From an uncultured bacterium (lineage in GTDB: Bacteria; Zhuqueibacterota; QNDG01; DSAB01), in the NCBI GenBank assembly GCA_964617625.1, contig CAZTZL010000004.1:11009-75008 (forward strand): 64,000 bases of DNA, written 5' to 3'. Below, piece by piece: positions 14,208 to 64,000 of the stretch (positions are counted from its first letter, which is position 1; the number at the start of each line of letters is the position of its first letter). A program made the position numbers and the translations under genes. Below the pieces are notes generated by a model. The model saw nothing but the letters and a program-made list of their open reading frames with translations, was not told the origin of the DNA and made no database searches.

Positions 14208-14271
14208 ATATTATTCTCCTTTTCTAATTTGTTTTAACACAAAAAAGATGTCCCATCCTTAACTTTTTGAT

Positions 14272-14430: not shown

Positions 14431-14509
14431 AGTACGCACCTCCTTCTGTTAGTTGTAAATTAATTGTATTTTTAAATCAACTGTTTATGAAGAATCGATC
14501 GTCCACCCT

Positions 14510-15727: not shown

Positions 15728-15736
15728 TGAAAACCT

Positions 15737-16240
15737 TTAGAATTTTACAAATTTATCTTTTGAAACACCGCAAACCGGACAATTATCGGGAACATCGCCT
15801 GATACCGTATATCCACAGACAGGACAAATATAAATATCGTTCATTTCGATATCTTTCCCCTGTTTTACGAATTCTCTGGCTTCCGAATACATGGCCGAAT
15901 GAATTTTCTCCGCTTCGATGGCGTAGTGAATCGAACGGATGGCCTCTTTTTCTGTCTGAAGTTTCGCCACGGCATCATAGGCCGGGTACATCTCTTCCAC
16001 CTCAAAATTCTCTCCGTCTATGGCGGATTGAAGGTTTTCGCTTGTATCTCCCAGATCTCCGAGTGCTTTCAAATGATTGGTTGCATGCACCTGTTCGGCA
16101 AATGATATGGCTTTGAACAACCGGGCAATATTGGATTTACCCTCACTTTCCGCTTTTTTGGAAAAAGCAAAATATTTCATATGAGCTTGACTTTCGCCTG
16201 CGAATGCGTCTTTTAAGTTCTTTTCTGTCATTTTCTTCAT
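15737..16240 (-). CDS. rbr: Rubrerythrin (erythrin domain plus C-terminal rubredoxin-like domain)
   Basis: Diiron motifs (ESQAHMKY, EQVHA, EAEKIHSAMY) and a C-terminal CPVCG...CPVCG domain. Confidence 0.9.
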   Translation of the reverse strand: MKKMTEKNLKDAFAGESQAHMKYFAFSKKAESEGKSNIARLFKAISFAEQVHATNHLKALGDLGDTSENLQSAIDGENFEVEEMYPAYDAVAKLQTEKEAIRSIHYAIEAEKIHSAMYSEAREFVKQGKDIEMNDIYICPVCGYTVSGDVPDNCPVCGVSKDKFVKF

Positions 16241-16275
16241 TCTTTATACCTCCTGAATTGATTTCGTATAAAAAA

Positions 16276-17040
16276 TCAAAATTCAAAAAACCGGTGTATT
16301 GTAAACCCAAAATGTAAATCATTCGAATCTGCACCCTGCATTAATATCCGATTGCCGAGTCCATAACTATTACTCAGAAGAAAATGAAACTGATGGCCAT
16401 ACGTCAGCATTTTGAGTCCAAATGCAAAAATATTATTGCGATCTTTTAGATCCGAATTGAGTATAGGATAGTATTCACCTATAAAATGCAGGTTTTTAGT
16501 TAACTGAATATCCCCTCCAAGACCCAATCCAAGATTTTCATTATAACCATCATAACCCAAATTAATTACAGGCGTTAAGCGGTTGAACAAAGGTTCTATA
16601 CGGGATACCATTTGGAAAAACATATGATACTTCCGACAATTGATCGCCTGCTCGAAAGAAAAATACTCGGCTTCGACTTGAAACTGGAAAATCCGAATAG
16701 GAAATGGAATTTTATACTGAATGCCCAGAGAATACGCCTTCAATGGAGAATTAAAAACGTAGGATCCCGAAATACCGATTCCGCTTCCCACGAAAACTCG
16801 CAGCCCAAGTCCCGGATTAGCGCCTCCCTGCATTCCGAAAAATGTTTCGAGTGGCTTTTCAGTTGCTACACCATAAAAACGATGTACAATGGTAAATTGC
16901 ATCTGACGTGCCTCAAGATCCGAAGGCACACTCAGATTCAGCATGGCGTATTTTTCATAAGCAAAAATGAAACCAGGCAAAGCTGTTAATACAATTAAAA
17001 GAAAATTACTTTTTTTCCGTATCATCCCAAACTCCCACAA
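16276..17040 (-). CDS. Outer-membrane beta-barrel protein, DUF5777-like
   Basis: N-terminal signal peptide, alternating amphipathic beta-strand pattern, and a C-terminal aromatic residue (...HRFFEF). The family assignment is from memory. Confidence 0.45.
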   Translation of the reverse strand: MWEFGMIRKKSNFLLIVLTALPGFIFAYEKYAMLNLSVPSDLEARQMQFTIVHRFYGVATEKPLETFFGMQGGANPGLGLRVFVGSGIGISGSYVFNSPLKAYSLGIQYKIPFPIRIFQFQVEAEYFSFEQAINCRKYHMFFQMVSRIEPLFNRLTPVINLGYDGYNENLGLGLGGDIQLTKNLHFIGEYYPILNSDLKDRNNIFAFGLKMLTYGHQFHFLLSNSYGLGNRILMQGADSNDLHFGFTIHRFFEF

Positions 17041-17048
17041 TTAGTGGA

Positions 17049-17471
17049 TTACTCCGACTGAACTGTGATTTTGACTTTTTTCTTTCCATATATACTGCAT
17101 TGCGCAGTCACAGTAATCTCGTCCCCCGTCTTTGCGCCAGGAATTAAATAGGTAGCTTTCTGCTCATCCGGATTCAATTGGATTGCAAACGTCTGCTGAA
17201 TGATCTCATTGCCATTGAGCTGAACGACAATCTTACCAATCCGATGCTTCACCACATCTTTTGTGTTATGTACAGCTACAACAGTCAAAATATGATCCTG
17301 CAGATTAAAATTGAGATCGACTTTACTTGGTGGATGAGCAAAAGCAATTTGGACAAACAAGAATGAAAAAAGCATAACGGATAAAATTGATTTTATTTTC
17401 AACGGAAGGGCCCTCCATTTGTTAGATGCATAAAATATTAACGAAATTAAAATAAAAAGTTTCCAATTCAT
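17049..17471 (-). CDS. Small secreted protein whose predicted mature N-terminus is a histidine (AFA|HPPSK); possible CopC-like metal-binding beta-sandwich
   Basis: Long N-terminal hydrophobic leader with an AXA cleavage site, leaving a mature chain of about 105 aa that starts HPPSKVDLNF. Its start overlaps the Rieske gene stop by 4 nt (ATGA coupling). Confidence 0.4.
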   Translation of the reverse strand: MNWKLFILISLIFYASNKWRALPLKIKSILSVMLFSFLFVQIAFAHPPSKVDLNFNLQDHILTVVAVHNTKDVVKHRIGKIVVQLNGNEIIQQTFAIQLNPDEQKATYLIPGAKTGDEITVTAQCSIYGKKKVKITVQSE

Positions 17472-17932
17472 GAATCGAGATGGAGTATAATCTGATTACT
17501 TTCTAAAGTCGCCAGGATTTCTTCCAGCGGAAAAGGAGCCGGACCGCTTACATTATCACCAGATAGATTGTATCGAGAGCCATGCCCGCAGGGACCGGAA
17601 CAGACCATGATGCCATTCACAGGCAGATCGATTTCACAGCCGGCATGCGTACAGCGGCTCGAAAAAGCAACCGTTTCTGTTTCGGAAATTCGAATAACGA
17701 TAACAGGCAGTGCATATCCCGGCACGTCATCAAATTTTAAAGCACCATTTACCGAATTTAATACTTGATTGTCCGATTGATTCAGATCGATAACATAATT
17801 GTTTTCATTTTGATTTGATTGCATGGGACATGTTTTATCTTTACTGCAGGACGATATCAACTGCCCTATCCCGGTTATACCGATGGCCACCGAGCACGAT
17901 TGTTTTAAAAATCTTCTTCTTTCCATAATCAT
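17468..17932 (-). CDS. Tat-exported Rieske [2Fe-2S] lipoprotein
   Basis: Twin-arginine motif RRRFLK, lipobox LISSC, Rieske box I CTHAGC and box II CSGPCGHGS. Confidence 0.75.
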   Translation of the reverse strand: MIMERRRFLKQSCSVAIGITGIGQLISSCSKDKTCPMQSNQNENNYVIDLNQSDNQVLNSVNGALKFDDVPGYALPVIVIRISETETVAFSSRCTHAGCEIDLPVNGIMVCSGPCGHGSRYNLSGDNVSGPAPFPLEEILATLESNQIILHLDS

Positions 17933-17960
17933 TCCTTAAAAAAGGATAATGACGAATATG

Positions 17961-18365
17961 TTATTTGGAGTGATCGCATTCCGAACAAATGCCCTGAAAT
18001 TCAAGAAAATGATTATGAATGCGATATCCTGTTAATTTCTCGATTTCATCGATCGATACACGCGGTGAAATATGAGGCACATCTTCTACTTTTCCACAGA
18101 CCGTGCAGCGCACATGATAATGATCCCGCAGATCGCCGTCGTAACATCTTAATCCCTTGCCAATGTTCAATTCCTGAATCTTGCCTTCATCCCGTAATAA
18201 ACTCAGATTCCGGTAAACGGTACCGAGACTGATATTGGCCATTTGCTTTCGGGCCATTTCGAAAATACGATCAGCCGTAGGGTGGCAGTGTGTCGACCGA
18301 ATGACACGAAGCACAAGATTACGCTGGCGGCTTGATTTCAATTTTCTCTCTTGTTTGATCGACAT
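17961..18365 (-). CDS. Fur-family transcriptional regulator (PerR-like by genomic context)
   Basis: Fur fold with a winged HTH, metal-site HHH-type residues (DHYHVRCTVCG) and a C-terminal CSEC. It sits at the head of the oxidative-stress cluster. Confidence 0.85.
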   Translation of the reverse strand: MSIKQERKLKSSRQRNLVLRVIRSTHCHPTADRIFEMARKQMANISLGTVYRNLSLLRDEGKIQELNIGKGLRCYDGDLRDHYHVRCTVCGKVEDVPHISPRVSIDEIEKLTGYRIHNHFLEFQGICSECDHSK

Positions 18366-25645: not shown

Positions 25646-27958
25646 TCATCTTAATAAAATCATTTTACGGCTGTATGAACCAGGTCCGATTTCTAATCGA
25701 TAGATATAAATACCAGAGGAACAAATACGGCTGTTTGAATCCTGACCTGACCATTCCACCCTGTACTGCCCCGGAGCTTGCACTTCCTTTTCAATTTTTT
25801 GAACCACACGTCCCTGGATGTCATAGATTTGAATGACTGCTTTTCTGTTTAAACGTCCTGTTTTTTCAGGGACATTGAATCGAATAACCGTTGTTTGATT
25901 GAATGGATTGGGATAATTTTGCCACAGATCAAACGATTCCGGGATAAATTCACTCGCTTCTTCTTCTTCAACATCAGTTTTTAAAACCGCACGGTAGATA
26001 TCGAGTTTGCCGTATCCCCACTGATCATCCCAGTAATATTGCTCGCCGGCGTGCCCGGTATTCGCATCTCTTTTTGCGGATGAGATAATCCAGTTTTTAA
26101 CGATTGAAATCGATGTATCCGGAAAAGACTCAAAAAGAAGCGCCACTGCACCAGTCACATGAGGCGCAGCCATGCTCGTTCCATGCAATGCCCAGTGGAC
26201 GCTGTCCGTGGCAATATATTGATTACCAGGCCATGATGTCTGATCCGACAAAGAAGATAGAATGTATTCTCCCGGTGCGGTAATTTCCGGTTTACTGGGA
26301 GGATTCGATTGGGTGGAATTAGGACGTGTCGGACCCTGGCTGGAAAATGAAGAACGCTGTCCTGCAGTAAGCCCGCCGGGACCCCATGGATTTTGAGACA
26401 GACTCGGCCAATTGATGCGCGAGACATAGGATCCAACTGTAAGAACGCGATTCGCATTTCCGGGCTCTGCGATGAGTGTCGAATAATCCACGCCCTGTGT
26501 GATTCTGGCCGTAACGGATCTATCATACATCCATCCGTCAAAACGTCCCCACTTGCCTACAAAGATCAGCTTCCAGATACCTGTCTCGAAATTCTGGATC
26601 GCACCGCCGTTCTGGGTATCGGATAAATGGATATAAATTTCTTTATCACCATTGGAATGCTCGGTATCTTCATCATCGTTTTGCACATGAATCATGGGCA
26701 TTCCGGCCTGCGGCCAAAAAAGAATCTCCCCTGCATCGACCGTATCGAGACGCGTGTGACTTGGCGTTTCAACAATCAATTTCAAACCCAGTGCGGAAGT
26801 GTACCAGATATCGAAATAGAGATCGTTCCTTGTTTCCGATTCATTGGTTTCGACTTCGAATTCAATGACAACCGAATCCCATACCGTCGAATACATTTCT
26901 CCTTTAAAATGGATCGGATCATCCCCTTCGTTGCCGGCCGCCGTGACAATGGCCCGTCCATCTTCATTCAAGAAATTGGTTAAGCTTCTTTCGTACAAAC
27001 TCGTCCCGTCGTGAGACCCGTGATGCGTTCCTCCGACGCTCAGATTGATTGCCACCGGACGAGATGGATCAAATGCTTCCGCTTTTTGAAAAATATAGTT
27101 GATGCCGTCAACAATACGATCATTGTCATAAACACCATCCCCACCCTTAACGATAATCAGATCCGCTCTGGGAGCTACGCCGACATAAACCTCAGAAGGT
27201 TTGTCATTGCCTGCCCCCCTGCCGTTCCCCGCAGCAATTCCGGCAACGTGTGTGCCGTGTCCCGTCCTGTCCCTGCCCTGGACCAATCCTGCGGGCGTAC
27301 CGTCGATTTCGTTATTGATCTGTTCCTGCGTGTATTCAGTGCCGTATCCAAAAGATGTCGTTCCGGTGTCTGTATTATCAGTCTGGTCCCAAAGAAAGAG
27401 AATTCTCGAATCATTCGAGTTATCGATAAAATCGGGATGGGTCCAGTCGATCCCCGAATCATAAATCCCAATAATGACGCCTTCTCCCTGCCGGGGAACA
27501 CCCAAATAGCCGGCCCAAACAGAATCCGCGCCAATTTCGTGAATACTGACATCCAGAGCAGCCTTGCACCTTGAGACCGATTCGATCCGAATCACAGAAG
27601 GCAACGCCGCAACTGTCCACAATTGAACCGGTGTTAATGTTGCTGTGACCACATCTCCAATTTCAGAATGAGTCCGGACACCGGCTGATTTCAGTTCTGC
27701 AATATCGGTCGTCTGAATAAACACATCAATATAAATCCGGTTCCCCTCTTCTTTAAGATCCGGATTATAAAACTGTTCAGGATATTTTTCGGACAATGTG
27801 ACCAGTTCGCTTAAAACAGGATCAAGTTTTTGAAACAAATACCGCTCTTGGCCATATCCATCATTCAAACTGAAAATGAAAACAGCGAATAATAAAAACC
27901 GGTATTGTTTTTTTCTCACCTGCTTCATAATCCTCTCAATCGATTCTGCTCTGTTCAC
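25646..27958 (-). CDS. S8-family subtilisin-like serine peptidase with a T9SS C-terminal sorting domain
   Basis: Catalytic triad motifs D(YDSGID), HGTHVAG and GTSMAAPHV. The C-terminal LWQNYPNPFN...IYDIQGR...GIYIYR is the Por secretion tail. The likely true start is the Met at 27928 (MKQVRKK... signal peptide), which removes the apparent overlap with xerD. Confidence 0.85.
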   Translation of the reverse strand: MNRAESIERIMKQVRKKQYRFLLFAVFIFSLNDGYGQERYLFQKLDPVLSELVTLSEKYPEQFYNPDLKEEGNRIYIDVFIQTTDIAELKSAGVRTHSEIGDVVTATLTPVQLWTVAALPSVIRIESVSRCKAALDVSIHEIGADSVWAGYLGVPRQGEGVIIGIYDSGIDWTHPDFIDNSNDSRILFLWDQTDNTDTGTTSFGYGTEYTQEQINNEIDGTPAGLVQGRDRTGHGTHVAGIAAGNGRGAGNDKPSEVYVGVAPRADLIIVKGGDGVYDNDRIVDGINYIFQKAEAFDPSRPVAINLSVGGTHHGSHDGTSLYERSLTNFLNEDGRAIVTAAGNEGDDPIHFKGEMYSTVWDSVVIEFEVETNESETRNDLYFDIWYTSALGLKLIVETPSHTRLDTVDAGEILFWPQAGMPMIHVQNDDEDTEHSNGDKEIYIHLSDTQNGGAIQNFETGIWKLIFVGKWGRFDGWMYDRSVTARITQGVDYSTLIAEPGNANRVLTVGSYVSRINWPSLSQNPWGPGGLTAGQRSSFSSQGPTRPNSTQSNPPSKPEITAPGEYILSSLSDQTSWPGNQYIATDSVHWALHGTSMAAPHVTGAVALLFESFPDTSISIVKNWIISSAKRDANTGHAGEQYYWDDQWGYGKLDIYRAVLKTDVEEEEASEFIPESFDLWQNYPNPFNQTTVIRFNVPEKTGRLNRKAVIQIYDIQGRVVQKIEKEVQAPGQYRVEWSGQDSNSRICSSGIYIYRLEIGPGSYSRKMILLR

Positions 27959-40201: not shown

Positions 40202-40990
40202 TTAAAAAAGAATCACTGCTAAAATGTAATCACTGATAAGAATAAACGCCGATGAAAAAACAAAAGCTTTAATTGTTGCATGCCCAACACCTTCCGCTCC
40301 ACCTTCGGTTCGGAATCCGATTGAACATCCAACAAGGGCAGTTCCACCTCCAAAAAACAAAGCTTTTACGATACCGGAAAAAACATTATACACTAAAAAA
40401 TAACGTTGAACACTGCTAAAAAAAGTCGTTGAGGAAACTCCCAGCAAAAGGAGCGCCACTACCCCTGCACCAATATGTGCAATCAGGTAAGAATAGATTA
40501 CCAGAATAGGAAGCATGACCCACCCTGCAGTAAAACGCGGTGCAGCGAGATAATTGATCGGATCGATTGCCAGTGTCTCAAGGGCATCAATCTGTTCAGT
40601 CACACGCATCGTTCCCAGTTCCGCAGCAATAGATGCTCCGACACGGCCTGCAATGACCAGCCCTGTCAATACCGGAGACAATTCAATGAAAATCGCATAA
40701 CTGACTGCTGCACCCAGAAAATCGTACGTAGACATTCCCGGTGCAAAACCTTCAAACTGATAGGCGGCCTGCCAGGAAGCAACTGCTCCCGTAAATATGC
40801 TGACTACGGAGACTAGCGGAAGAGAATTTACACCGATTTTCAGCATTTGCTTGAGCACCAGATGGCGATGCTGAAAAATATAAACTGTGCCGCGCAATAT
40901 CCTGAAAAGCATAATCGCCATATAGCCCATTTCTCTGAAGAAAGAGATAATTCGATCTCCAATCCAGAAAAATGGAGCGTTAATCGTCAC
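40202..40990 (-). CDS. mlaE: ABC transporter permease, MlaE family
   Basis: 5 to 6 TM helices in a MlaE/Ttg2B-like pattern, 3 bp from the ATPase gene. Confidence 0.8.
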   Translation of the reverse strand: MTINAPFFWIGDRIISFFREMGYMAIMLFRILRGTVYIFQHRHLVLKQMLKIGVNSLPLVSVVSIFTGAVASWQAAYQFEGFAPGMSTYDFLGAAVSYAIFIELSPVLTGLVIAGRVGASIAAELGTMRVTEQIDALETLAIDPINYLAAPRFTAGWVMLPILVIYSYLIAHIGAGVVALLLLGVSSTTFFSSVQRYFLVYNVFSGIVKALFFGGGTALVGCSIGFRTEGGAEGVGHATIKAFVFSSAFILISDYILAVILF

Positions 40991-46094: not shown

Positions 46095-46409
46095 TTATTC
46101 GAGGGGCTTTTTCAACACTTCTTTTAAAAGTTTGCCTGCCTTAAAATGAGTTTTTCGACGTGCGGGTACATAAATAATTTCTCCGGTTTTGGGATTTCTC
46201 GCTTTTGGTTTGGGTTTGGTTTTCTTAACTTCAAAAACACCAAAATCTCGGATTTCGATACGCACTTCATGACTTGCCTCGGCCATAAACTGCCTCAGAG
46301 CGGTAAAAACACCGTCCACGATTTTCTCGGTGATGTATATTCTTTCACCGACCAACTTTGCAGTCCTTTTTGCAACATCTTTCTTCGTGATGGTTTCCAT
46401 TTTGCTCAT
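46095..46409 (-). CDS. hup: HU/IHF-family nucleoid-associated DNA-binding protein
   Basis: DFGVFEVKKTKPKPKARNPKTGEIIYVPARRKTHFKAGK is the HU arm and beta-ribbon signature. Confidence 0.85.
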   Translation of the reverse strand: MSKMETITKKDVAKRTAKLVGERIYITEKIVDGVFTALRQFMAEASHEVRIEIRDFGVFEVKKTKPKPKARNPKTGEIIYVPARRKTHFKAGKLLKEVLKKPLE

Positions 46410-53981: not shown

Positions 53982-55052
53982 TCAAAATTTCAATGGAATG
54001 GGTTTATTTAGAAGGATTGTCAGGGAAATGCGATGGGTATGTCCAAGATCAAAATGATTTAAAAATCCATAATCCACTTGAAAATATTTAAACCAAAAAC
54101 CTCCTCCAACTGTAAAGTTCCCCCTGTCCGTGCCAGCCCGTAAAAAAAGTCGGTCTTTGTAGGAGATTTCTCCTCCGGCGTGCAGATCGAAACCCAAAGC
54201 TCCCAGAGACATTTGGGCTACTTCGCCTCTCGATTCAAAATCCACATCAATTTCACAGACAGGAAGTACTTTGATAGAATGAAATTGAACCGGATAAACG
54301 GCTCCCAATCTCAAATGCGGCAGCAACAATTCCGTTCTCCCTGTATTCCATGCAATGAGAGTTGAAGTGCCGTCCGCAAGAACAGCTCCAATTTTCAGTT
54401 GATGAACCGGATTCCATAATACTCCGAAATCAAATCCGATTCCCCACGCACCCCATTGATCCATGCTCTTTCGAATCGTTTTAATACTTCCACCATATGA
54501 GAAAGAACGGCTCTGTCTTTTTCCAAAGGAAAACATGAAAACCATTTCACTGTCGTTGATATATTTTTCAACCTGTGGAAGATTTTCGGCTCCCAAAGGT
54601 TTCGAAGGATCGGTCAGCCGGGTCAACGGAATGTCATCCACGCCTAATCGGTATACTCCAAAACCCAAAGTCAAGCTGTCCTTTACAGAATATCCGAGTC
54701 CAAGAAAATCCCAATTGACAATGCCGCTGAATCGTTCTGCATGCATTCCGTGTATTTGAAAAGACTGCAGAAAAGCCAGTCCTGCAGGATTCCAGTAGAT
54801 TGCCGTAACATCTTCCGAAGCCGCAACATAGGCGCCTCCCATCGCTAGTGCCCGTGCACCGACACCCACTGCCAAAAACTCTCCCGCATATTTTGAAGTT
54901 GTTACCTCTCCATAAACGAGGGACAATTTGGAGATAAAGAAAAAGATGATTGCGTAAATTATTTTCAATTTCAATTGTTTTTCCTTTTTAACCTTTCCCA
55001 AGTCCCTAAAACATACATAAATAGCTACACAAAAGCAAGGTAAAATTTTCAA
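53982..55052 (-). CDS. Outer-membrane beta-barrel protein, PorV/PorQ-like (FadL-like) family; paralogue of 43079..44074
   Basis: GVGARALAMGGAYVAASEDVTAIYWNPAGLA N-terminal motif. Beta-strand periodicity ending in an aromatic C-terminus (...IPLKF). Confidence 0.4.
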   Translation of the reverse strand: MKILPCFCVAIYVCFRDLGKVKKEKQLKLKIIYAIIFFFISKLSLVYGEVTTSKYAGEFLAVGVGARALAMGGAYVAASEDVTAIYWNPAGLAFLQSFQIHGMHAERFSGIVNWDFLGLGYSVKDSLTLGFGVYRLGVDDIPLTRLTDPSKPLGAENLPQVEKYINDSEMVFMFSFGKRQSRSFSYGGSIKTIRKSMDQWGAWGIGFDFGVLWNPVHQLKIGAVLADGTSTLIAWNTGRTELLLPHLRLGAVYPVQFHSIKVLPVCEIDVDFESRGEVAQMSLGALGFDLHAGGEISYKDRLFLRAGTDRGNFTVGGGFWFKYFQVDYGFLNHFDLGHTHRISLTILLNKPIPLKF

Positions 55053-55095
55053 TAAAATATTTTAATTGATAAAACAAACTGGGATTATATATAAA

Positions 55096-55124
55096 AACCC
55101 TATTGAAATGAATTCAATAGGGTT
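55096..55124 (-). terminator. Rho-independent terminator of the REC-PAS-HisKA gene
   Basis: aaccctattgaa-atgaa-ttcaatagggtt forms a perfect 12 bp stem, followed on the minus strand by TTTTTATATAT. It lies 31 bp after the stop at 55155. Confidence 0.6.
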
Positions 55125-55154
55125 ATTATTATAATTTCTATTATGATATTGTCT

Positions 55155-56213
55155 TTATGTCGAACCGTCTATATCAAGCATCCTTGTTCCTTTTAAATAT
55201 TCTTTTGTGACGGGATGTGTAATATTGGCAAGTTTTTGAGTAATATCCCGAATGCGGAGTGCGTTTTTTATTATAGCCTTTAACCGTTTTCTGCAATCCT
55301 CATCTTCAATTTTCCCTTCATGAAGAAGATACTGGGCATTCCCTAAAATTGGAACCAGGGGATTGTTCACTTCATGATTGACTGCCACTGCTGTTTCGAC
55401 GACTGCGACCAAACGGTCCGAAGCATACGAGTCGTATTCAGAAAAATTCTTTCCTTCAATTTCTTTACTGATTCCAATGGCTCCGATCACCTTGCCACTG
55501 CCATCCTGCATTGTAGAAATGGAAAGATTTATGGGGATTCTTTTTCCTTTCTTATCAATGACAATGGTCTTATAATTTGGCAATTTTTTTCTTTTTCTAA
55601 GCAAAGCGCTAATATTTAATAATTCGGAAGGACCGTCAGCTAAAAACCGGCTGACCCGTTTTTCCACCAATTCCTCAAAACTGTATCCCAACATCTCTTC
55701 GCTGGCATGATTGCAATAGGTAATAATGCCTTTTCTGTCTGTGGTGATGATAGAATCAATTGAACTTTCGACAACCCTTTCCAGAAAATCTTTTGCTTCA
55801 TGAATGGTCGTCCAGAACTGAGTTTCCTCCATCTTGATTTGATGGGACACAAATACGTCTTCAACAAATTCAATCAGCTCTTTCACACTATAAGGTTTTC
55901 CCAAACAGGCACTAAAACCCAATCCATAATATTTAGAACGATTTAATTTCCCGTTATTGGTAAGCAAAATAAAAGGAATATGTTTGAAGGATTGATATTT
56001 AAAATCTGTCAAAAAGTGAGTATAAAATTCTTCTGCAGAAAAATCGGGTAAAGAGTAGTTAACAATGACCAGATTCGGATTCTCTTTTAATATTCCTTCA
56101 AGACCTTCTTTCCCGTTATCATAAAACAAACAACGATAACCATTATCGACAAGTACTCCATCAATTTTTTTCCTATATCTTTTGTCATTATCGATATAAA
56201 CTATTTTTTTCAT
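55155..56213 (-). CDS. Pseudo-receiver + PAS + HisKA-only signalling protein (no ATPase domain)
   Basis: REC-like fold in which the phospho-acceptor position reads N (LVIVNYSLPD) while the conserved K is kept (GKPYSVKEL). A PAS domain follows (IITTDRKGIITYCNHASEEMLGY), then an H-box NHEVNNPL. The protein ends about 60 aa later with no G1/G2 boxes. Confidence 0.6.
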   Translation of the reverse strand: MKKIVYIDNDKRYRKKIDGVLVDNGYRCLFYDNGKEGLEGILKENPNLVIVNYSLPDFSAEEFYTHFLTDFKYQSFKHIPFILLTNNGKLNRSKYYGLGFSACLGKPYSVKELIEFVEDVFVSHQIKMEETQFWTTIHEAKDFLERVVESSIDSIITTDRKGIITYCNHASEEMLGYSFEELVEKRVSRFLADGPSELLNISALLRKRKKLPNYKTIVIDKKGKRIPINLSISTMQDGSGKVIGAIGISKEIEGKNFSEYDSYASDRLVAVVETAVAVNHEVNNPLVPILGNAQYLLHEGKIEDEDCRKRLKAIIKNALRIRDITQKLANITHPVTKEYLKGTRMLDIDGST

Positions 56214-56289
56214 TTTTTTATCTGCATATGCTATATTTTATTAAAGTCCTTTTGTCGTGTACAGGAAACAAGTGTTATACAAAAGTAAA

Positions 56290-56661
56290 TTAATTTCCCA
56301 ACCGATCACTCACAAGTTGTTTCAAAATCAACAAATCCCATGGCTTTGAAAGGTAAAGCGTCCCATCCTTTTTATTTTCAGCAATACGTCCGAATTTAAG
56401 ATCAAGATATCCGGAAGTTAATACTCTCACCGAGTGTGGATTCTTTTCACGAATTTGATTGAGCAGATCCGAGCCTGAAGCATCTGGTAATTTTAAATCG
56501 GACAAGACAAAATCAATCCCATGATGTTCTACAATTTCCAATGCATCCGATGCCCGTTTCGCTGTATGCAACTGATATCCGTCATCCGAAAAAAGATCCA
56601 CCAGAATATCGAGTATTTCTTCTTCGTCATCAACAAAAAGAAGGCTTTTATCGCCGTTCAT
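56290..56661 (-). CDS. Single-domain CheY-like response regulator
   Basis: Canonical REC residues: DD (LLFVDDEEE), D (VLSDLKLPD), T (VLTSGY), K (SKPW). The start is set at ATG 56659-56661 (MNGDKS), which is preceded by a GGAGG and lies downstream of a sigma-54 promoter. The longer ORF-track start at 56733 would contain that promoter. Confidence 0.8.
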   Translation of the reverse strand: MNGDKSLLFVDDEEEILDILVDLFSDDGYQLHTAKRASDALEIVEHHGIDFVLSDLKLPDASGSDLLNQIREKNPHSVRVLTSGYLDLKFGRIAENKKDGTLYLSKPWDLLILKQLVSDRLGN

Positions 56662-56725
56662 AGAACCTCCAAATTCCCTTACATCAAAAACACTCAAATC
56701 ATTACTATATCTGTACTTACAAACA

Positions 56726-56741
56726 GGCAACATTCATGCCA
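56726..56741 (-). promoter_or_regulatory. Sigma-54 (-24/-12) promoter candidate upstream of the CheY-like regulator gene
   Basis: Minus-strand sequence TGGCAT-G-AATG-TTGCC matches TGGCAC-N5-TTGCW with correct GG-N10-GC spacing, about 65 nt upstream of the ATG at 56661. Confidence 0.5.
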
Positions 56742-56862
56742 TGTGGAATGAACATTGTTTAGTATTTAATTAATAGAATGTTATGAATAGTATTAAGGTA
56801 TGCGATAAACAGAGGATAGAAGGCAAGCTTTTCCTTTGTCAGGATCAATTTACCCATTGTTA

Positions 56863-58236
56863 TTAAACAACAATTCCTTCTTTTCTATATTCATTTAGTT
56901 TATTTCGAAGTGTACGAACACTGATTCCCAACAGGTCTGCAGTTTTGGTTCGATTATCTTCATTTTCGCGGAGTGTTCTTAGAATCAGGGTCTTTTCTAT
57001 TTCTCTCAGGGATTTCGGTTTCGATCCATCGTAAAGAGGTTCTTCTTTTGAAATATGATCACTCAGAGAAAAATGGTTCACATCCAGCATGGTCACATCA
57101 GGGCCTGACATGACAATCGCACGTTCGATACAATTCTCAATCTCCCGAACATTTCCCGGCCATTCTTTTTGCATAAGCATTTTCATTGCTTTTTCCGATA
57201 CGCCTTTTATCTTCTTTCCATTTTCGCTGTTATATCCATTAATAAAATATTGTATAAGAAGCGGTATATCCTCTCTTCGTTCAGATATCGGAGGCAAATG
57301 AATAGGAACGACATTAAAGCGATAATAAAGATCTTCCCGGAAACGCCCCTCTTCAACTTCTTTCTTAAGGTCACGGTTGGTCGTAGCGATAATGCGCACA
57401 TCCACAGGGATTGGCTTTCCCCCACCTACCCTTTCAATTTCCCTTTCCTGAAGAACCCGCAACAATTTTGCCTGAAGCCCTAAAGTAATCTCACTGACTT
57501 CATCCAAAAGCAGAGTACTTCCGTGAGCCATTTCAAACCGGCCCTTTGTGGTTTTATAAGCTCCCGTAAAAGCACCTTTTTCATGACCGAACAATTCACT
57601 TTCAACAAGGCCTTCCGGCAACGCTGCACAATTGGTTGTAATAAACGGCATTTGACGCCGATCGCTGTTATAGTGAATTGCCCTTGCTACAAGTTCTTTG
57701 CCCGTACCGCTTGGGCCTTGTATCAGTACTGTGGCCTTGCTTCGAGCGACCATCTGAATCGATTCGAAAACACGGTTCATGGGATCACTCTTTCCAACGA
57801 TGTTTTCAAAACTGAATTTCTTATCGAGCTCAGATCTCAAATAGCGATTTTCGTCGACCAAATTTTGATATTCAAAATATTTATCGACAACCAGTTCCAT
57901 TTCTTCCAAACTAAAGGGTTTTGTAATATAATCAAACGCACCCTGTTTCATCGCTTTAACCGCACTCTTGATCGAACCATAAGCAGTAATCATAATAATG
58001 CCAATACCAGGATATTTCGTTTTTACTCGAGAGAGAATTTTCATTCCACTGATATCAGGTAATCTGATATCGGTAATCAGAAGATCGTAGGGATTTTCCT
58101 CAAGCCTGGCAAGTGTTTCTTTTCCATTGGCTGTCACATCAACAGAAAAACCTTTTCTCTGAAAAGTTTCGTTCAATAGTTCGCGGATCATTTCCTCATC
58201 GTCAAGAACCAGAATACGTTTTTGTTCATCATTCAT
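56863..58236 (-). CDS. Sigma-54-dependent transcriptional activator, NtrC family (REC + AAA+ + Fis-type HTH)
   Basis: REC domain (ILVLDDEEM...LLITDIRLPD), Walker A GPSGTGKE, ESELFGHEKGAFTGA (GAFTGA), an arginine finger, and a C-terminal HTH. Confidence 0.9.
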   Translation of the reverse strand: MNDEQKRILVLDDEEMIRELLNETFQRKGFSVDVTANGKETLARLEENPYDLLITDIRLPDISGMKILSRVKTKYPGIGIIMITAYGSIKSAVKAMKQGAFDYITKPFSLEEMELVVDKYFEYQNLVDENRYLRSELDKKFSFENIVGKSDPMNRVFESIQMVARSKATVLIQGPSGTGKELVARAIHYNSDRRQMPFITTNCAALPEGLVESELFGHEKGAFTGAYKTTKGRFEMAHGSTLLLDEVSEITLGLQAKLLRVLQEREIERVGGGKPIPVDVRIIATTNRDLKKEVEEGRFREDLYYRFNVVPIHLPPISERREDIPLLIQYFINGYNSENGKKIKGVSEKAMKMLMQKEWPGNVREIENCIERAIVMSGPDVTMLDVNHFSLSDHISKEEPLYDGSKPKSLREIEKTLILRTLRENEDNRTKTADLLGISVRTLRNKLNEYRKEGIVV

Positions 58237-58239
58237 GTA

Positions 58240-58944
58240 TCAATTTCCTTCATCTAATTGAATCAACAAGGTATGGCGATCTTTTGAATTCGTCTCAAGT
58301 GAAATTCGGGCATTGTGCAAATCCGCAATCTTGTATACGACAGCAAGAGAAAGTCGTGCTTCAATGGGTTCACATTCCTCAATAAAATGAACAATGTTTT
58401 CCAATAGATCAGAGGGAATCATTCCATCATGAAAGTGAATTTCTATATCAATCTTTGAATTTTCAGGTGGGTTGAGTTTAACGGACTCAATTTGTCCGCC
58501 AACCAATTGAGTAAAACGAAATGCATGATAAAAAAGCTCACGCATTAAATACGGATCCCCTGATAATTCCATTTTTTCTTCCGGGAAGTCAGTATGAATG
58601 ACGTCTACTTGTTCTTTATCTTTATCCTCTTTTGTAAAATTATAGCAGATTTCCTTGATCAAAGACTTTATGGCGATTTTTTCAAAACTGGGTTCTGCTT
58701 TTTGCACCAATGTCATTAAATGAATGACAAATTCATTCAACCGATGGACGCCGTCGATAATTCTTTGCAGAAGTTTCTTTCTCGGATCATTTCGATCGAG
58801 ATCTCTTTCCAGAAGAGAAGCAAACCCGCCTATACCACCCAGGTTATTTTTTATTTTGTGTACAACATCGGATAAAAATTTGTCATCCCTGCTGTGTCCG
58901 ACCTGGAAATGGATAAAATTCTGGTCCTTCTCATTCAAATCCAA
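58240..58944 (-). CDS. Cytoplasmic histidine-kinase-like protein with a degenerate ATP-lid (possible pseudokinase or phosphatase), translationally coupled to the sigma-54 activator
   Basis: H-box VVHKIKNNLGGIGGFASLLERDL. The C-terminal domain aligns to HATPase_c but the G2 box is replaced (ARLSLAVVYKIADLHNARISL in place of GLGLAIV..HGG). No TM or sensor domain. TTG start. 3 bp gap to the downstream NtrC-like gene. Confidence 0.65.
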   Translation of the reverse strand: MDLNEKDQNFIHFQVGHSRDDKFLSDVVHKIKNNLGGIGGFASLLERDLDRNDPRKKLLQRIIDGVHRLNEFVIHLMTLVQKAEPSFEKIAIKSLIKEICYNFTKEDKDKEQVDVIHTDFPEEKMELSGDPYLMRELFYHAFRFTQLVGGQIESVKLNPPENSKIDIEIHFHDGMIPSDLLENIVHFIEECEPIEARLSLAVVYKIADLHNARISLETNSKDRHTLLIQLDEGN

Positions 58945-59004
58945 ATTAGTCAGTTAAACCTCCTCGGGCTTTCTGGGTTTTTGTGAAACCACCAACTATT
59001 GTTT

Positions 59005-59020
59005 TGCTTAAACCATGCCA
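59005..59020 (-). promoter_or_regulatory. Weaker sigma-54-like promoter candidate upstream of the HK-like / NtrC-like operon
   Basis: Minus-strand TGGCAT-G-GTTT-AAGCA has correct GG-N10-GC spacing but an imperfect -12 element, about 65 nt upstream of the TTG start at 58944. Confidence 0.25.
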
Positions 59021-59227
59021 AAAATATGTCATTTTCGTCTTTTTCAAGTAAAAAATGAAAAATAAATCTGTATATAAAATTCCCCTGTTTCCAAATCATT
59101 TTCTTATATCTTGATTATATAGTATAATATATTGAATACTTTATAATTAATTACATATCGATAATGGTAATTTTACAGGATATAATTTTACAATCATTTT
59201 CAATCTCAATTTCTCCATACATAAAAA

Positions 59228-59251
59228 AACCAGTATCATTAAATACTGGTT
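59228..59251 (-). terminator. Rho-independent terminator of hybrid histidine kinase 59327..61774
   Basis: aaccagtat-cattaa-atactggtt forms a 9 bp stem followed on the minus strand by TTTTTTT. It lies 76 bp after the stop. Confidence 0.6.
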
Positions 59252-59326
59252 TACAAAAAGAAAGGAACTTTACAAATTGGAACTACCAAATGATCCTCCA
59301 GATACTTCGGATAGTTGGAAAATCAA

Positions 59327-61774
59327 TCAGCCATTTAATACTGTTCGCACCTGTTGCAGTAAAGACCTCACTTGATAAGGTTTATGAATAATTCCGGAAA
59401 TATGGGATGTGATTGATTTCCCATAGGCTTCTTTTTCTCCCAAACCAGCTGCGGCAATAATTTTAATTCTTGGATTCATTTTTTTCAGCCAGACTAAAAT
59501 TTTGGAAATTTCCATTCCGCTCATAATAAGATCCAAAATAACCAGATCCACTCGATTCTTGTATTTTTTATAAATCGCAATCGCTTCAGGCCCGTTCTCC
59601 GCACAAATCACTTTATAACCGTATCGCGTAAGCATCTTTCGGGCTGTTTCTTTTAATGCCTTTTCATTATCGACCAGCAGAATGGTTTCCTTTCCCAATA
59701 TTGGTTTCGCATTGATTGCAGATTTTTTTTGCTGGGAACGGTTTTGCTTTTCACAAACAGGCAAGTGAATCTTGAATACGGTTCCCTTATCCTTTTCGCT
59801 GAACACAGAAATAAAACCACCATGTTTTTCAATGATTTCCTGAACGATCGATAATCCCAAACCTCTTCCGGTATCATTTGGCTTGGTAGTAAAATACGGT
59901 TCAAAAATTTGCTCTTTAATCTCACTGCTCATTCCAATGCCGGAATCACTGATCGTCAATTGTACATATTGGCCTGGTTTCGCCCCTGAATGTAACTGCA
60001 CATTACTCTCATCCAGCTGGATATTACTCGTTCGAAAAACAATTTTCCCTTCATTCGATATCGCATCACGGGCGTTTAAAGCAACTTCAAGAATCGCATG
60101 CTGTATTTGTCCCGTATCACCCATAATAGAGGCCAATTCAGAATTTAATTCGGCACGAATCGTAATCGTCTTACTTAATGTTCGTGATAAAATGCCGGCA
60201 ACCTCTTTTACCAGTTGATTCATATCCAAACAAATAACGCTTTCTCCTCCTGCCTGAGCATACGCTAAAAGCCTTGAAGTCAATTCCGTAGCTTTCTCCG
60301 AAGTCCTCATAATTTGGATGATATCATTATAATAGGGGCTGTTCTTGGGGACGTCTTCATGTAACAGCGAACTATATCCCAAAATCGAAGCCAGCATATT
60401 ATTGAACTCGTGTACAATCCCACCAGCCAAAATACCAAGAGATTCCATCTTTCTTGCCTGAATCAATTGTTCATGAAGCCTCTCCCGTTCCTCTTTACTG
60501 ATCCAACACCAAATAGTCATTTTATCATCATCAAAACTGATTGGATTAATTTCTATCCATCGCCGTCTTCCATCTTTGATTACTGCAATCACTTCATATT
60601 TTCGATTTTGATCCCCGTTTGACACATCCGTGTTATCCTTATTAATCATTTCATGAAAATCCGAGGCAATAAAATCTGTAACAGGCCTTCCATTGATAAG
60701 GTCACTGGAAAGCTCCAGAAAATTTTCAACCCATTTATTGACGTATTGGACAATCCCGTCTTTAATAAATAAAACCCCAAAAATGGAGATTTTCAATAAC
60801 AGATTCAAAGGATCCGTATTTGTGATGGAAACAGGCGCCGGGTTTTCTTTTTTCATGAAAACAAATGGCAAAATAGATTCTAAGAATTCAATATTATCCA
60901 GACTCCACTGATTCGAAAGAACATGCGTAATCACCAAACAGCCGTGTTTAAATCGATTTGTTTTTAACGTAACAATTCCGAGCGATTCATAATCCGTCAA
61001 AGATACCAAATAATCCTTTTCATCCTCACCGGATGATTCGAACATTAAATTTGAGAGTGATTCAATTAATACACTGCCGGAGGCGGTACCAGGACACAGT
61101 GTTTGTCGAGAACATTTATTGGCGATTTGCAGCCACCGCTCTGCCGGCCATTTTCTGAAATCATCCGGGTCATTTTCGGGGATAGTGACTAATTTGTTCC
61201 ATTTACCGAGGGTAAATTTTGTTCCGCTTTTATCTTCGAAAAATAATCCAATCCCGTCGGTTCTCATACTCTTCTGTATTTCAATTAAAACATTTTCCAA
61301 TAATTTTTCAAATATATAATTTCCGTTTAGCAATTCTAAAAAACGGATGGACAATTTTTGTTTGTTTTGTAATTGAACAACATCAGAAATATTTTTTATA
61401 TAGAGTCTAACCTCGGTTATCTTGTCGGATTCGTCTGCAACTGACAAACCATTTATCATGACAGGAATACAATATCCGTCCTGCTTTTTTAAATATGCTC
61501 TTGCATCCTTTATATAACCTTTGCTTTTACATTTTTTAACGGCTTTCTCAATTTCGTCTTGATATGGATCATCAACCAGGTCCAGGAATTTTTTTCCGGT
61601 TATTTCCTTCTTTTCATAGTCCAAAATATCCAGAACAGTCGTATTACATGAGACAATAGCTCCCTCATTATTAATAAGAAAATATAAAATATCCGCTTTT
61701 GAGTACAATTCCTCGTATATCTTTTCAGGGACACTCAAGTTGTAACTTCTTGTTTTATCAACAGTTTTATTCAT
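59327..61774 (-). CDS. Cytoplasmic hybrid sensor histidine kinase (multiple PAS/GAF domains, HisKA, HATPase_c, C-terminal REC)
   Basis: H-box GGIVHEFNNMLASILGY, N/G boxes (LNARDAI, DSGIGM, GRGLGLSIV), and a C-terminal REC (LVILDLIMSGM, HKPY). No TM segments. Confidence 0.85.
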   Translation of the reverse strand: MNKTVDKTRSYNLSVPEKIYEELYSKADILYFLINNEGAIVSCNTTVLDILDYEKKEITGKKFLDLVDDPYQDEIEKAVKKCKSKGYIKDARAYLKKQDGYCIPVMINGLSVADESDKITEVRLYIKNISDVVQLQNKQKLSIRFLELLNGNYIFEKLLENVLIEIQKSMRTDGIGLFFEDKSGTKFTLGKWNKLVTIPENDPDDFRKWPAERWLQIANKCSRQTLCPGTASGSVLIESLSNLMFESSGEDEKDYLVSLTDYESLGIVTLKTNRFKHGCLVITHVLSNQWSLDNIEFLESILPFVFMKKENPAPVSITNTDPLNLLLKISIFGVLFIKDGIVQYVNKWVENFLELSSDLINGRPVTDFIASDFHEMINKDNTDVSNGDQNRKYEVIAVIKDGRRRWIEINPISFDDDKMTIWCWISKEERERLHEQLIQARKMESLGILAGGIVHEFNNMLASILGYSSLLHEDVPKNSPYYNDIIQIMRTSEKATELTSRLLAYAQAGGESVICLDMNQLVKEVAGILSRTLSKTITIRAELNSELASIMGDTGQIQHAILEVALNARDAISNEGKIVFRTSNIQLDESNVQLHSGAKPGQYVQLTISDSGIGMSSEIKEQIFEPYFTTKPNDTGRGLGLSIVQEIIEKHGGFISVFSEKDKGTVFKIHLPVCEKQNRSQQKKSAINAKPILGKETILLVDNEKALKETARKMLTRYGYKVICAENGPEAIAIYKKYKNRVDLVILDLIMSGMEISKILVWLKKMNPRIKIIAAAGLGEKEAYGKSITSHISGIIHKPYQVRSLLQQVRTVLNG

Positions 61775-61877
61775 GAGTTCTATAAAAAGAAATTATTTTT
61801 CTCCGAATCGATGCAAGCCACTTTTTAAACCTGTATATTATGATCTTTTTCAAAAGAAATATTTTCAGATAATAATT

Positions 61878-61893
61878 TGCAAACCTTGTTCCA
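61878..61893 (-). promoter_or_regulatory. Sigma-54 (-24/-12) promoter candidate upstream of hybrid histidine kinase 59327..61774
   Basis: Minus-strand TGGAAC-AAGGT-TTGCA matches TGGCAC-N5-TTGCA with one mismatch. It lies about 105 nt upstream of the start at 61774. Confidence 0.45.
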
Positions 61894-61917
61894 AATGATG
61901 ATTTTTTTAAAAAATAT

Positions 61918-64000
61918 CTATACTATTTTTCGGACAGCTTGTAAGAGGACTTCTGTCTGGAAGGGCTTTTGTATAAATACAACATCTCCGAATTGTTCCA
62001 AATCATGATGATTGTAAGGACCATATCCGGAAGTAAATATTACCTTGATATTTGGATTCGTTTCACGAAGCTTCTTAAACGCTTCCTTACCACCCATCTC
62101 CGGCATAATCAGATCTAAAACCACAAGGCTGATATTTTCCCTGTTTTTATTATAAATCTCAAGCGCTTCTTTGCCATTGCTTGCCAATAAAACTTCATAT
62201 CCTCCTTTTTCCAGCATTCGCTTGCCAACCTGTCGAATCACCTGCTCGTCATCAACAAGGAGGACTATGTTTTTCTCAGAAGATTCTGAAACAGACACTG
62301 GATGAATTTCCTCATTGACCTCCTGAAACCTGGGCAACAATATGGACACCTTTGTCCCTTTGCCAAGTTCACTATCCACAAGAATTGCGCCTTCGTGATT
62401 TTTAATAATACCATATACCATTGCCAATCCTAAACCGGTTCCTTCTCCGGCAGGCTTTGTCGTAAAAAAAGGTTCAAAAATTCTATTTTTGGTTTTTTCG
62501 TCCATTCCGACACCCGTATCGGATATCGCAATACGAATATAATCTCCCGGCTGAACACCCAGCTGAGTTTGGGAAAATGTTTCATCCAAAATAACATTGG
62601 CAGTTCCAATTGTCAGCTTTCCTCCGCCCGACATGGCTTCAACTGAGTTGAGACAAATATTCATAATGGCCTGATATATTTGCTTTGAATCGCCTTTCAC
62701 CCACCAGAGATTTTTACCCAGCGATGTTTCGATAATAATCGATTTATCGATTGTACGATATAATGCAGTTATAATTTCTTCTATATTTTGATTTAAATCA
62801 ATAGATCGCACATGATATTTCCCGCCGCGAGCGAAAGCCAGAAGACGGTTCGTCAAATCGGCGGCCCTCTTAGCCGTCTCGGCAATGGTATGAATGTCAT
62901 TGTAATAAATATGATTGCTGGGCATATCACTCAATAACAATGAGGCATATCCCAAAATTCCGCCTAAAAGATTGTTAAAATCGTGCGCTATACCGCCGGC
63001 CAATGTGCCTATGGATTCCATTTTCTGACTTTCAAAAAGCTGTATTTCCAGTTTCTTTCTTTTTGTAATATCCACAACATTGCCGAGAACCGCCACCTCT
63101 CCTCCCATTTCTACCTGGCACGATCTGAGTTCCCCATAAAGCTTTTCATCCCCCTTTTTAATAAACCGAACTTCATAGTGATCGACAACCTCCTCGCCTT
63201 TCTCTCTTTGATTTTCACGGCTGACTACCATGCTTCGATCCTCGGGAGCAATAAATTCAAAAAAGTCTTTCTCGATAAGTTCATCTCTGTTATAACCAAG
63301 AAAATCGGCAAATTTACTATTGACAAATTGAATTTTACCTTGCCTAATAATGAATACACCGATCAGAGAGGATTCAACCAGCAAACGGTATTTTTCTTTC
63401 GATTCCCTTAAACTCTCCTCCAGAGCTTTCCTCACTTCAACATCACGAATAAAACTCTGAAATACCTCTTTTCCCTGAAACCAGACTTTTCTGCTGCTTA
63501 ATTCTGCTTCAAATACTGTATTGTCTTTTCTTTTTAGTATTGTCTCCAATGGTTTTGTCTTTTGACCATGAAATACAACTTTTAAATAATTCTCTTGTTC
63601 GGAAAAAGCTTTGTCAATTGTAATATCTTTCCAGGTCAGTTGTAATAATTCTTTTCGTTCATATCCCAATAATTGACAGGCAACACGATTAATTTCGATT
63701 AATTGCCCCGTGCTGTCATGTATGATAATACCATCATTCGTTCCTTCGAACAACACATGATATTGAAATTCTTTCTCAAGCAGGTTCTTGGTCCCTTCTT
63801 CGATACGCTCTTCAACATGTTTTACCCAGTTATTCAGTTCCGTTCTTTTCTTTTTCAGTTCGCGAAAAAGCCTTGTGTTTTGAATTGAAAGAGCCAAAAC
63901 AGACGATACGAAGGATATAAAATCCAACACCCTAGTTTCTTCTCTTAACGAAGAATAGTCGATCAGTAAGATAGCATCGATATAATTGGTGTGAATGTTT
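61918..64000 (-). CDS. Hybrid sensor histidine kinase (GAF end, 2x PAS, HisKA, HATPase_c, C-terminal REC); N-terminus extends beyond the window end
   Basis: H-box GGIAHDFNNLLGGILGY, DTGVGM / GTGLGLAMV, and REC (VLLVDDEQ...VVLDLIMPEMGG...QKPF). The minus-strand frame remains open upstream of the annotated GTG at 63930, through to base 64000 (...HTNYIDAILLIDYSSLREETRVLDFISF looks like the end of a GAF domain). Confidence 0.85.
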   Translation of the reverse strand, partial: NIHTNYIDAILLIDYSSLREETRVLDFISFVSSVLALSIQNTRLFRELKKKRTELNNWVKHVEERIEEGTKNLLEKEFQYHVLFEGTNDGIIIHDSTGQLIEINRVACQLLGYERKELLQLTWKDITIDKAFSEQENYLKVVFHGQKTKPLETILKRKDNTVFEAELSSRKVWFQGKEVFQSFIRDVEVRKALEESLRESKEKYRLLVESSLIGVFIIRQGKIQFVNSKFADFLGYNRDELIEKDFFEFIAPEDRSMVVSRENQREKGEEVVDHYEVRFIKKGDEKLYGELRSCQVEMGGEVAVLGNVVDITKRKKLEIQLFESQKMESIGTLAGGIAHDFNNLLGGILGYASLLLSDMPSNHIYYNDIHTIAETAKRAADLTNRLLAFARGGKYHVRSIDLNQNIEEIITALYRTIDKSIIIETSLGKNLWWVKGDSKQIYQAIMNICLNSVEAMSGGGKLTIGTANVILDETFSQTQLGVQPGDYIRIAISDTGVGMDEKTKNRIFEPFFTTKPAGEGTGLGLAMVYGIIKNHEGAILVDSELGKGTKVSILLPRFQEVNEEIHPVSVSESSEKNIVLLVDDEQVIRQVGKRMLEKGGYEVLLASNGKEALEIYNKNRENISLVVLDLIMPEMGGKEAFKKLRETNPNIKVIFTSGYGPYNHHDLEQFGDVVFIQKPFQTEVLLQAVRKIV

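Follow-up and report, generated by a model that had tools for sequence, protein, structure and literature searches.

We analyzed a 64,000-nt stretch of DNA from an uncultured bacterium (contig CAZTZL010000004.1, positions 11,009 to 75,008; hereafter the window). It carries a cluster of six signaling genes that encode two hybrid histidine kinases (A and 1), a histidine kinase-like (HK-like) protein, an NtrC-type enhancer-binding protein (the activator), a CheY-like single-domain response regulator and a REC-PAS-DHp protein. Three motifs in this cluster, S1, S2 and S3, are with high probability sigma-54 (RpoN) promoters. They would divide the cluster, a conserved phosphorelay cassette of six genes, into three transcription units that each depend on an activator. 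Because the same positions are kept in every related bacterium that we examined, the motifs almost certainly behave as real promoters of the -24/-12 type, as judged by comparison of sequences.

Three motifs with sigma-54 promoter geometry

All substantial open reading frames (ORFs) of the window lie on the minus strand, and the motifs are read in the same direction:

56726..56741, minus strand: S1, predicted sigma-54-type promoter, TGGCATGAATGTTGCC, serving the CheY-like / REC-PAS-DHp operon
61878..61893, minus strand: S2, predicted sigma-54-type promoter, TGGAACAAGGTTTGCA, serving hybrid kinase 1
59005..59020, minus strand: S3, predicted non-canonical sigma-54-type promoter, TGGCATGGTTTAAGCA, serving the HK-like / activator operon

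An earlier note on this DNA had described three minus-strand motifs with GG-N10-GC geometry at these coordinates, two of them about 65 and about 105 nt upstream of the CheY-like gene and hybrid kinase 1. Reading the sequence bears this out: the spacing is exact in S1, S2 and S3, with 64 nt between the end of S1 and the ATG at 56661 and 103 nt between the end of S2 and the ATG at 61774. S2 lies 25 nt past the stop codon of hybrid kinase A. Transcription is predicted to start at about 56715 from S1 (5′ untranslated region (UTR) of about 54 nt), at about 61867 from S2 (5′ UTR of about 93 nt) and at about 58994 from S3.

S1 and S2 agree with the consensus TGGCAC-N5-TTGCW at 14-15 of the 16 listed positions, and both contain the T of the TGC core at -14 (TTGCC in S1, TTTGCA in S2). 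Each motif deviates from the canonical sequence in its own conserved manner, S1 by its TTGCC end, S2 by TGGAAY at -24, and S3 by RGCA with a T-tract one step further upstream. The -24 half TGGCATG is common to S1 and S3. Scored with a position weight matrix, an approximation of the published sigma-54 compilation whose scores serve only to rank sites, S1 and S2 both reach 15.4 and S3 reaches 13.1.

The motifs are kept at the same junctions in related loci

We compiled related loci by three routes. A genome scan based on the activator returned L001, at 95% identity, and L002, which is GC-rich and at 73%, as the two true orthologous loci. Scanning an alignment of the CheY-like protein against metagenomes added L081-L088, at 62-75% identity. 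Finally, a search with the HK-like protein, which belongs to a narrow family of only 43 proteins, supplied eight further loci (L164-L171, 12-20 kb each, HK-like identity 36-47%). The GC content of the compared loci ranges from 34% to at least 50%. In all of them the cassette is syntenic, with hybrid kinase A and hybrid kinase 1 followed by the HK-like, activator, CheY-like and REC-PAS-DHp genes.

S1 is kept in 17 of the 17 loci that cover the CheY-like junction, starting 56-85 nt before the ATG in those loci where this was measured; its 16 nt are nearly invariant and its flanks are unrelated between loci. S2, in the form TGGAAY-N5-TTTGCW, occurs in all 12 loci that cover its junction, mostly 3-25 nt past the hybrid kinase A stop codon and again with flanks that are not conserved. 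S3, in the form TGGCATGRTTTMRGCA, is present in 12 of 14 loci, and in those 12 TGGCATG is invariant, as is a GC exactly 10 nt later. The two exceptions are L002 and L167, in which hybrid kinase 1 and the HK-like gene abut (gaps of 13 and 3 nt, respectively). S3 is thus present only where a gap exists and is therefore found exactly where transcription must restart. For each motif, conservation falls to noise directly outside the 16 nt, and throughout L164-L171 the intergenic sense-strand matches with a matrix score of at least 11 are confined to the three junctions.

Orthologues of hybrid kinase A, the first gene of the cassette, have no preceding sigma-54 site, with the exception of L002; the window itself includes only about 70 nt upstream of this gene. 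The site in L002 (positions 1655-1670, plus strand; AGGCATGAGTATTGCA, score 14.8) lies about 115 nt upstream of a longer hybrid kinase A ORF, and no other locus has one there.

Placement rather than abundance is informative

Matches to a loose sigma-54 consensus are not enriched across the window as a whole. Allowing up to two mismatches, TGGCAC-N5-TTGCW occurs 31 times against 25.8 expected, and TGG-N8-TTGC occurs 14 times against 8.6 expected. The matrix is more selective: four matches score at least 13 in the 128 kb of both strands, and S1, S2 and S3 are among these four. They are also the only intergenic matches scoring at least 10 in the 64 kb, and each is directed toward a gene, in a window of which 7.6% is intergenic. 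In simulated first-order Markov sequences that keep the dinucleotide frequencies, we obtained 1.69 matches of at least 13 per 128 kb, which corresponds to about 0.06 expected in intergenic sense-strand positions; three were observed. The informative feature is therefore the placement of the motifs, not their abundance across the window.

These counts bear on the possibility that the motifs arose by chance, as matches that a short and degenerate consensus will find in AT-rich intergenic DNA. The missing window-wide enrichment would fit such an origin, but the excess of three observed over about 0.06 expected intergenic sense-strand matches does not, and as many as 17 loci have the motifs at corresponding junctions, between flanks that are not conserved. 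Because of this conservation chance is untenable, and we regard it as effectively refuted.

A separate strong sigma-54-like match, TGGCGCTCCTTTTGCT (score 13.2), lies in sense direction inside an MlaE permease gene at 40443-40458 on the minus strand. It may be a chance match or an intragenic sigma-54 site.

Predicted transcription units and the start of the CheY-like gene

Two terminator-like hairpins delimit the predicted units:

59227..59252, minus strand: terminator-like hairpin after hybrid kinase 1, separating the S2 and S3 units; 11-bp stem followed by a T-run
55096..55124, minus strand: terminator-like hairpin, 12-bp stem followed by a T-run, closing the S1 operon

Hairpins comparable to the first are found in L084, L164, L165 and L169. 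On this map, S2 would drive hybrid kinase 1 as far as the terminator at 59252-59227, S3 would drive the HK-like protein together with the activator, and S1 would drive the CheY-like regulator and the REC-PAS-DHp protein as far as the terminator at 55124-55096. We found no terminator in the 25-nt gap between hybrid kinase A and S2 in the window, and read-through from hybrid kinase A across S2 could for that reason give basal expression. No Rfam family was detected at E ≤1 within 54800-64000.

The sites might instead bind the sigma-54 holoenzyme chiefly as roadblocks or insulators between such units, a function for which S2 would be the main example, since it follows the upstream gene very closely in most loci. 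Sigma-54 sites that are intragenic or do not act as promoters are indeed common in enterobacteria (PMC3844500). All sites, however, face the next gene at a distance that would give a 5′ UTR of about 50-190 nt, and the cluster includes an activator plus a candidate enhancer for S1 (see below), so that we consider a chiefly insulating role very improbable and retain the promoter reading.

The position of S1 also informs the annotation of the CheY-like gene. A 147-aa ORF starting at 56733 overlaps the motif, as the earlier note had recognized in placing S1 inside a longer reading frame and preferring the short start MNGDKS with its GGAGG ribosome-binding site. That preference is upheld: GGAGG stands ahead of the short ATG, all CheY-like orthologues align from the short Met, the CheY-like ORF of L001 has the short start only, and an independent gene call gives a protein of 123 aa. 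In L169 a 145-aa call starts 8 nt past the start of the 16-nt S1 motif and so overlaps the promoter; this is probably the same kind of start error as the 147-aa ORF.

A candidate enhancer upstream of S1

Between the activator gene and S1 we identified two conserved elements as candidate upstream activating sequences (UAS):

56842..56854, minus strand: UAS-A, distal candidate enhancer, 13 bp, GGTAAATTGATCC (family consensus GGYAAWTCTCTCC), aligned in all loci
56822..56834, minus strand: UAS-B, proximal candidate enhancer, 13 bp, GGAAAAGCTTGCC, a dyad of the form GGMAA-N3-TTKCC

UAS-A starts 9 nt past the activator stop codon, and in every locus the two elements are spaced 20 nt centre to centre, with 93-105 nt between the start of UAS-B and the S1 motif. 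In the window, the centre of UAS-B lies about 112 nt upstream of the predicted S1 transcription start, within the 70-150 bp that is typical of enhancers (PMC3844500). The UAS-B 12-mer shows 2 mismatches in total across loci, compared with at least 7 in a shuffled null, and it is the sole high-scoring copy in each locus. We also considered UAS-B as an RNA hairpin or terminator and ruled this out, as imperfections in its arms are not compensated and it has no T-run behind it. The earlier note had proposed to look for enhancer-like inverted repeats 80-150 bp upstream; for S1 we found tandem sites about 90-125 bp upstream of the motif, of which the proximal one is a dyad, and for S2 and S3 we found no conserved upstream element.

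The spacer from UAS-B to S1 (56742-56821, minus strand) is A/T-rich, and in several loci the stretch about 25-35 nt ahead of the TGG contains AAWCAAT-like motifs, a possible IHF/HU bending site; the window has a gene of the HU/IHF family at 46095-46409.

Proteins of the cassette

The six genes of the cassette are, in order of transcription:

61918..63930, minus strand: hybrid histidine kinase A, 670 aa; PAS, PAS, HisKA, HATPase_c and REC (Pfam)
59327..61774, minus strand: hybrid histidine kinase 1, 815 aa; PAS, HisKA, HATPase_c and REC (Pfam); putatively transcribed from S2
58240..58944, minus strand: HK-like protein, 234 aa; DHp and degenerate catalytic domain, HisKA only in Pfam
56863..58236, minus strand: NtrC-type enhancer-binding protein, 457 aa; REC, Sigma54_activat, AAA_lid_14 and HTH_8 (Pfam)
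56290..56661, minus strand: CheY-like single-domain response regulator, 123 aa, short start MNGDKS
55155..56213, minus strand: REC-PAS-DHp protein, lacking a catalytic domain and encoded second in the S1 operon

The activator has the features of an NtrC-family bacterial enhancer-binding protein (bEBP), namely a receiver, an AAA+ domain with a GAFTGA loop and a C-terminal Fis-type helix-turn-helix. Its Sigma54_activat match in Pfam is strong (1.6e-71), and the GAFTGA, Walker A (GPSGTGKE) and receiver Asp (LLITDIRLPD) motifs are intact. The best NCBIfam model is AtoC, below its curated cut-off. Assignment as an equivalog of AtoC, NtrC or ZraR was rejected (scores of 509.7, 437 and 409 against NCBIfam cut-offs of 714, 559 and 760, respectively), and because all of these scores fall short, we describe the protein as a family member with no assignable orthologue.

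The HK-like gene ends 3 nt ahead of the activator start codon. Across five lineages, aligned with the two true kinases of the cluster, its product retains the H-box HKIKNxLGGI, whereas the N, G1, F and G2 boxes are gone; Pfam detects no HATPase_c domain in it. Weak full-core matches to ThkA and ZraS are found, and its sequence matches are to ordinary kinase cores only. Degenerate pseudo-histidine kinases of this kind, with a decayed catalytic (CA) domain, can act as phosphotransferases between hybrid-kinase receivers and response regulators (PMC9981736). Because the ATP-binding boxes are lost and the H-box is kept, the HK-like protein is a pseudo-kinase and a candidate ChpT/Spo0B-style phosphotransferase linking both hybrid kinases to the activator. 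Where its translation starts is uncertain. A GGAGG precedes the listed TTG (58944) by 14 nt and an in-frame CTG (58953) by 5 nt, and in L001 (9270-9300) the codon aligned with the TTG is TCG.

In the receiver of the REC-PAS-DHp protein, Asn replaces the phospho-accepting Asp (VIVNYSLPD), and the protein resembles a fusion between a pseudo-receiver and a bare DHp domain. The gap between its gene and the CheY-like gene ranges from a few to about 70 nt in orthologues. Hybrid kinase 1 has weak CckA-like matches in NCBIfam. In six of the eight loci found with the HK-like protein (L164-L166, L168, L169 and L171, at about 3000-4500 in each), hybrid kinase A is directly preceded by genes for a PspC-domain protein and a LiaI/LiaF-like membrane protein, which hints at a link to envelope stress.

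A proposed circuit

Sigma-54 RNA polymerase binds the GG (-24) and GC (-12) elements of a promoter as a closed complex. A phosphorylated, oligomerised activator then hydrolyses ATP, and contact of its GAFTGA loop with sigma-54 leads to DNA opening. At S1, the activator would most likely act from the tandem UAS-A and UAS-B, centred about 110-130 bp upstream of the start, across the A/T-rich spacer that separates the pair from the promoter. From the domain content, we would expect the signal to pass from the two hybrid kinases to the HK-like protein, acting as a His-phosphotransferase, and from there to the receiver of the activator and possibly to the CheY-like protein.

Because S3 precedes the activator operon, and S2 does so in loci that lack S3, synthesis of the activator would be sigma-54 dependent in every lineage examined, and positive feedback would result if the local activator is responsible. 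The earlier note had envisaged an activator that drives the neighboring signaling genes in a feed-forward cascade. We would revise the type of circuit: should S3 and S2 respond to the local activator, the outcome would be positive autoregulation, or feedback amplification. That the activator drives the neighboring promoters gains support at S1 from the conserved enhancer-like element, but none is conserved upstream of S2 or S3, and for all three promoters together the proposal is unproven. The local activator nevertheless stays a candidate for S2 and S3, because enhancers may lie kilobases away or downstream of a promoter and activators may act from solution (PMC3844500, PMC2709558).

A more elaborate version, which we put forward as a speculation and consider quite unlikely, is that S1, S2 and S3 form a graded set read by one activator. 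S1 would then be the enhancer-dependent member, S2 a promoter with a T-tract and no enhancer, and S3 one lacking the T at -14. The defective -12 element of S3 might loosen the lock of the sigma-54 closed complex enough to permit an activator-independent leak, and this leak might bootstrap a self-locking feedback loop.

Evidence against the promoter reading, and alternatives

Several points weigh against reading all three motifs as sigma-54 promoters served by the local activator. The weight matrix only approximates the published frequencies and differs from the published matrix. S3 is without the canonical T at -14/-15 in 12 of 12 loci (AAGCA, AGGCA, CGGCA or CAGCA), and it thereby departs from the GG and TGC elements that are essential in sigma-54 promoters (PMC3844500). 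No conserved enhancer for S2 or S3 was found within 260 bp. The assignment of the UAS pair to the neighboring activator is one that we infer from adjacency and co-conservation. Lastly, no rpoN was found among the roughly 60 genes of the window by Pfam annotation of all large ORFs; we infer its presence in the genome because enhancer-binding activators and sigma-54 co-occur near-perfectly across genomes (PMC3162934).

The departure at S3 raises the question of whether this motif belongs to sigma-54 at all. It could be a conserved operator, given its GGCA-N7-RGCA direct repeat, or an element for a housekeeping sigma factor, for example of the Bacteroidetes type TTG-N18-TATTTTTG. The canonical T is never present in S3, and the TGG overlaps a TAnnTTTG-like -7 box, TATTTTTG, both in the window and in L001. 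This box is not conserved in L081 or the remaining loci, and we rejected a Bacteroidetes-type -33 / -7 promoter as the explanation of S3 on the grounds that the box is limited to the window and L001. TGGCATG and the GC 10 nt on are invariant, by contrast, the -24 half is common to S1, and S3 occurs only where a promoter is needed. An origin of S3 outside sigma-54 is thus unlikely, though it deserves more weight than an insulating role. The earlier note had called S3 a weaker copy. It is a conserved variant across loci and not simply weak; because of this footprint conservation, the comparison argues for a non-canonical sigma-54-type promoter with RGCA replacing TTGCA at -12 rather than a degraded copy.

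The enhancer result at S2 and S3 bears on a different alternative, in which the sites are real but at least one enhancer-binding protein encoded elsewhere acts on S2 and S3, and conceivably also on S1, making the cluster a downstream tier of a cascade. The flagellar hierarchy from FlrA to flrBC is an example of such a tier. A scan with a matrix of the S1 UAS gave no consistent copy upstream of S2 or S3, a cross-locus 12-mer search upstream of both gave nothing exceeding the shuffled null, and inverted-repeat detection returned only AT-rich palindromes and the terminator. An external activator would account for the lack of an S1 enhancer copy or above-null 12-mer at these promoters; the distinct sequence flavors of the three promoters, kept across lineages, are compatible with different inputs, and a purely sigma-54 dependent bEBP gene requires a separate source of initial expression. 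On the other hand, no second activator gene was found in the window or among the called genes of L164-L171, the local protein may act even without a local UAS (PMC3844500, PMC2709558), and read-through from hybrid kinase A across S2 could supply the basal expression. We regard an external activator as a possible explanation for S2 and S3 but the less probable one, and continue to favor three sigma-54 promoters, with the cassette's own activator as a candidate at S2 and S3.

One S1-dyad-like sequence, GGAAAAAAATTCC, lies inside hybrid kinase 1 (61585-61597, minus strand), 270-306 nt downstream of S2. In the orthologues it recurs at the corresponding codons, where it specifies G-K-K/N-F-L in the PAS domain, and changes at synonymous positions disrupt the dyad in several loci. 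We therefore discarded it as an enhancer; it is probably a coding coincidence.

Other features of the window

Downstream of the REC-PAS-DHp gene, a PorV2/PorQ-family outer-membrane protein is encoded at 53982-55052 on the minus strand, and housekeeping genes follow. A subtilase with a type IX secretion C-terminal sorting domain is encoded at 25646-27958 on the minus strand. Together, the subtilase and the PorV2/PorQ protein point to an organism of the Fibrobacteres-Chlorobi-Bacteroidetes (FCB) group. Positions 8860-18365 (minus strand) hold a dense oxidative-stress and iron island with three rubrerythrins, desulfoferrodoxin, an AhpC/Tsa peroxiredoxin, ferritin and Fur, as well as a Rieske protein and a REC-PAS histidine kinase, which suggests an anaerobe with its own stress regulon.

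Significance and comparison with known systems

These results provide a high-confidence, though predicted, map of promoters, enhancer and operons for a conserved signaling cassette of an uncultured lineage. The map corrects a CheY-like gene start that some gene callers miss, supplies a defined candidate DNA site for the activator, and indicates that sigma-54 control of the activator's own operon is maintained across the lineage. Mildly unusual are the three co-directional predicted sigma-54 promoters in one cassette, each with a lineage-fixed sequence type, the detection of an enhancer only at S1, and the conserved non-canonical -12 element of S3. That element offers a small natural test case for how the -12 sequence tunes sigma-54 promoters. 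The current understanding of sigma-54 regulation is unchanged by these findings.

In its proposed phosphotransfer, the cassette resembles the CckA-ChpT-CtrA/CpdR pathway of Alphaproteobacteria, in which a hybrid kinase is combined with a pseudo-histidine-kinase phosphotransferase with a degenerate CA domain (PMC9981736), and in both cases there are two acceptors, putative ones here, one a transcription factor and the other a single-domain receiver. The transcription factor here is a sigma-54 activator instead of the OmpR-family CtrA, and the cassette belongs to an unrelated lineage with type IX secretion markers typical of the FCB group.

The Vibrio LuxQ/LuxN-LuxU-LuxO system likewise combines hybrid kinases, a phosphotransfer intermediate, an NtrC-type activator and sigma-54 outputs, a correspondence that we draw here from domain content alone. 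LuxU is an HPt protein, whereas the putative intermediate of the cassette consists of a DHp and a pseudo-CA domain; and the targets of LuxO are small RNAs, whereas those proposed here are signaling proteins of the same cluster.

In promoter arrangement, we find a counterpart in zraSR of E. coli and Salmonella, where a sigma-54 activator is known from experiment to drive its own two-component operon and the target zraP (PMC4987338). As in that system, an NtrC-family regulator is associated with a sigma-54 promoter before its own kinase/regulator operon and another before an adjacent target (PMC4987338), here on prediction, and ZraS is among the best matches of the HK-like protein. The Zra promoters are divergent and share one enhancer region, whereas the three described here are co-directional, with a recognisable enhancer only at the target promoter S1. 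The partner 'kinase' of the cassette also has a degenerate ATP-binding domain, and the activator falls below the ZraR and AtoC equivalog cut-offs. More broadly, predicted sigma-54 promoters before NtrC-family regulator genes are widespread, with 414 COG2204 genes in one survey (PMC12316311). Such promoters are already known, and the cluster described here is a well-supported further case.

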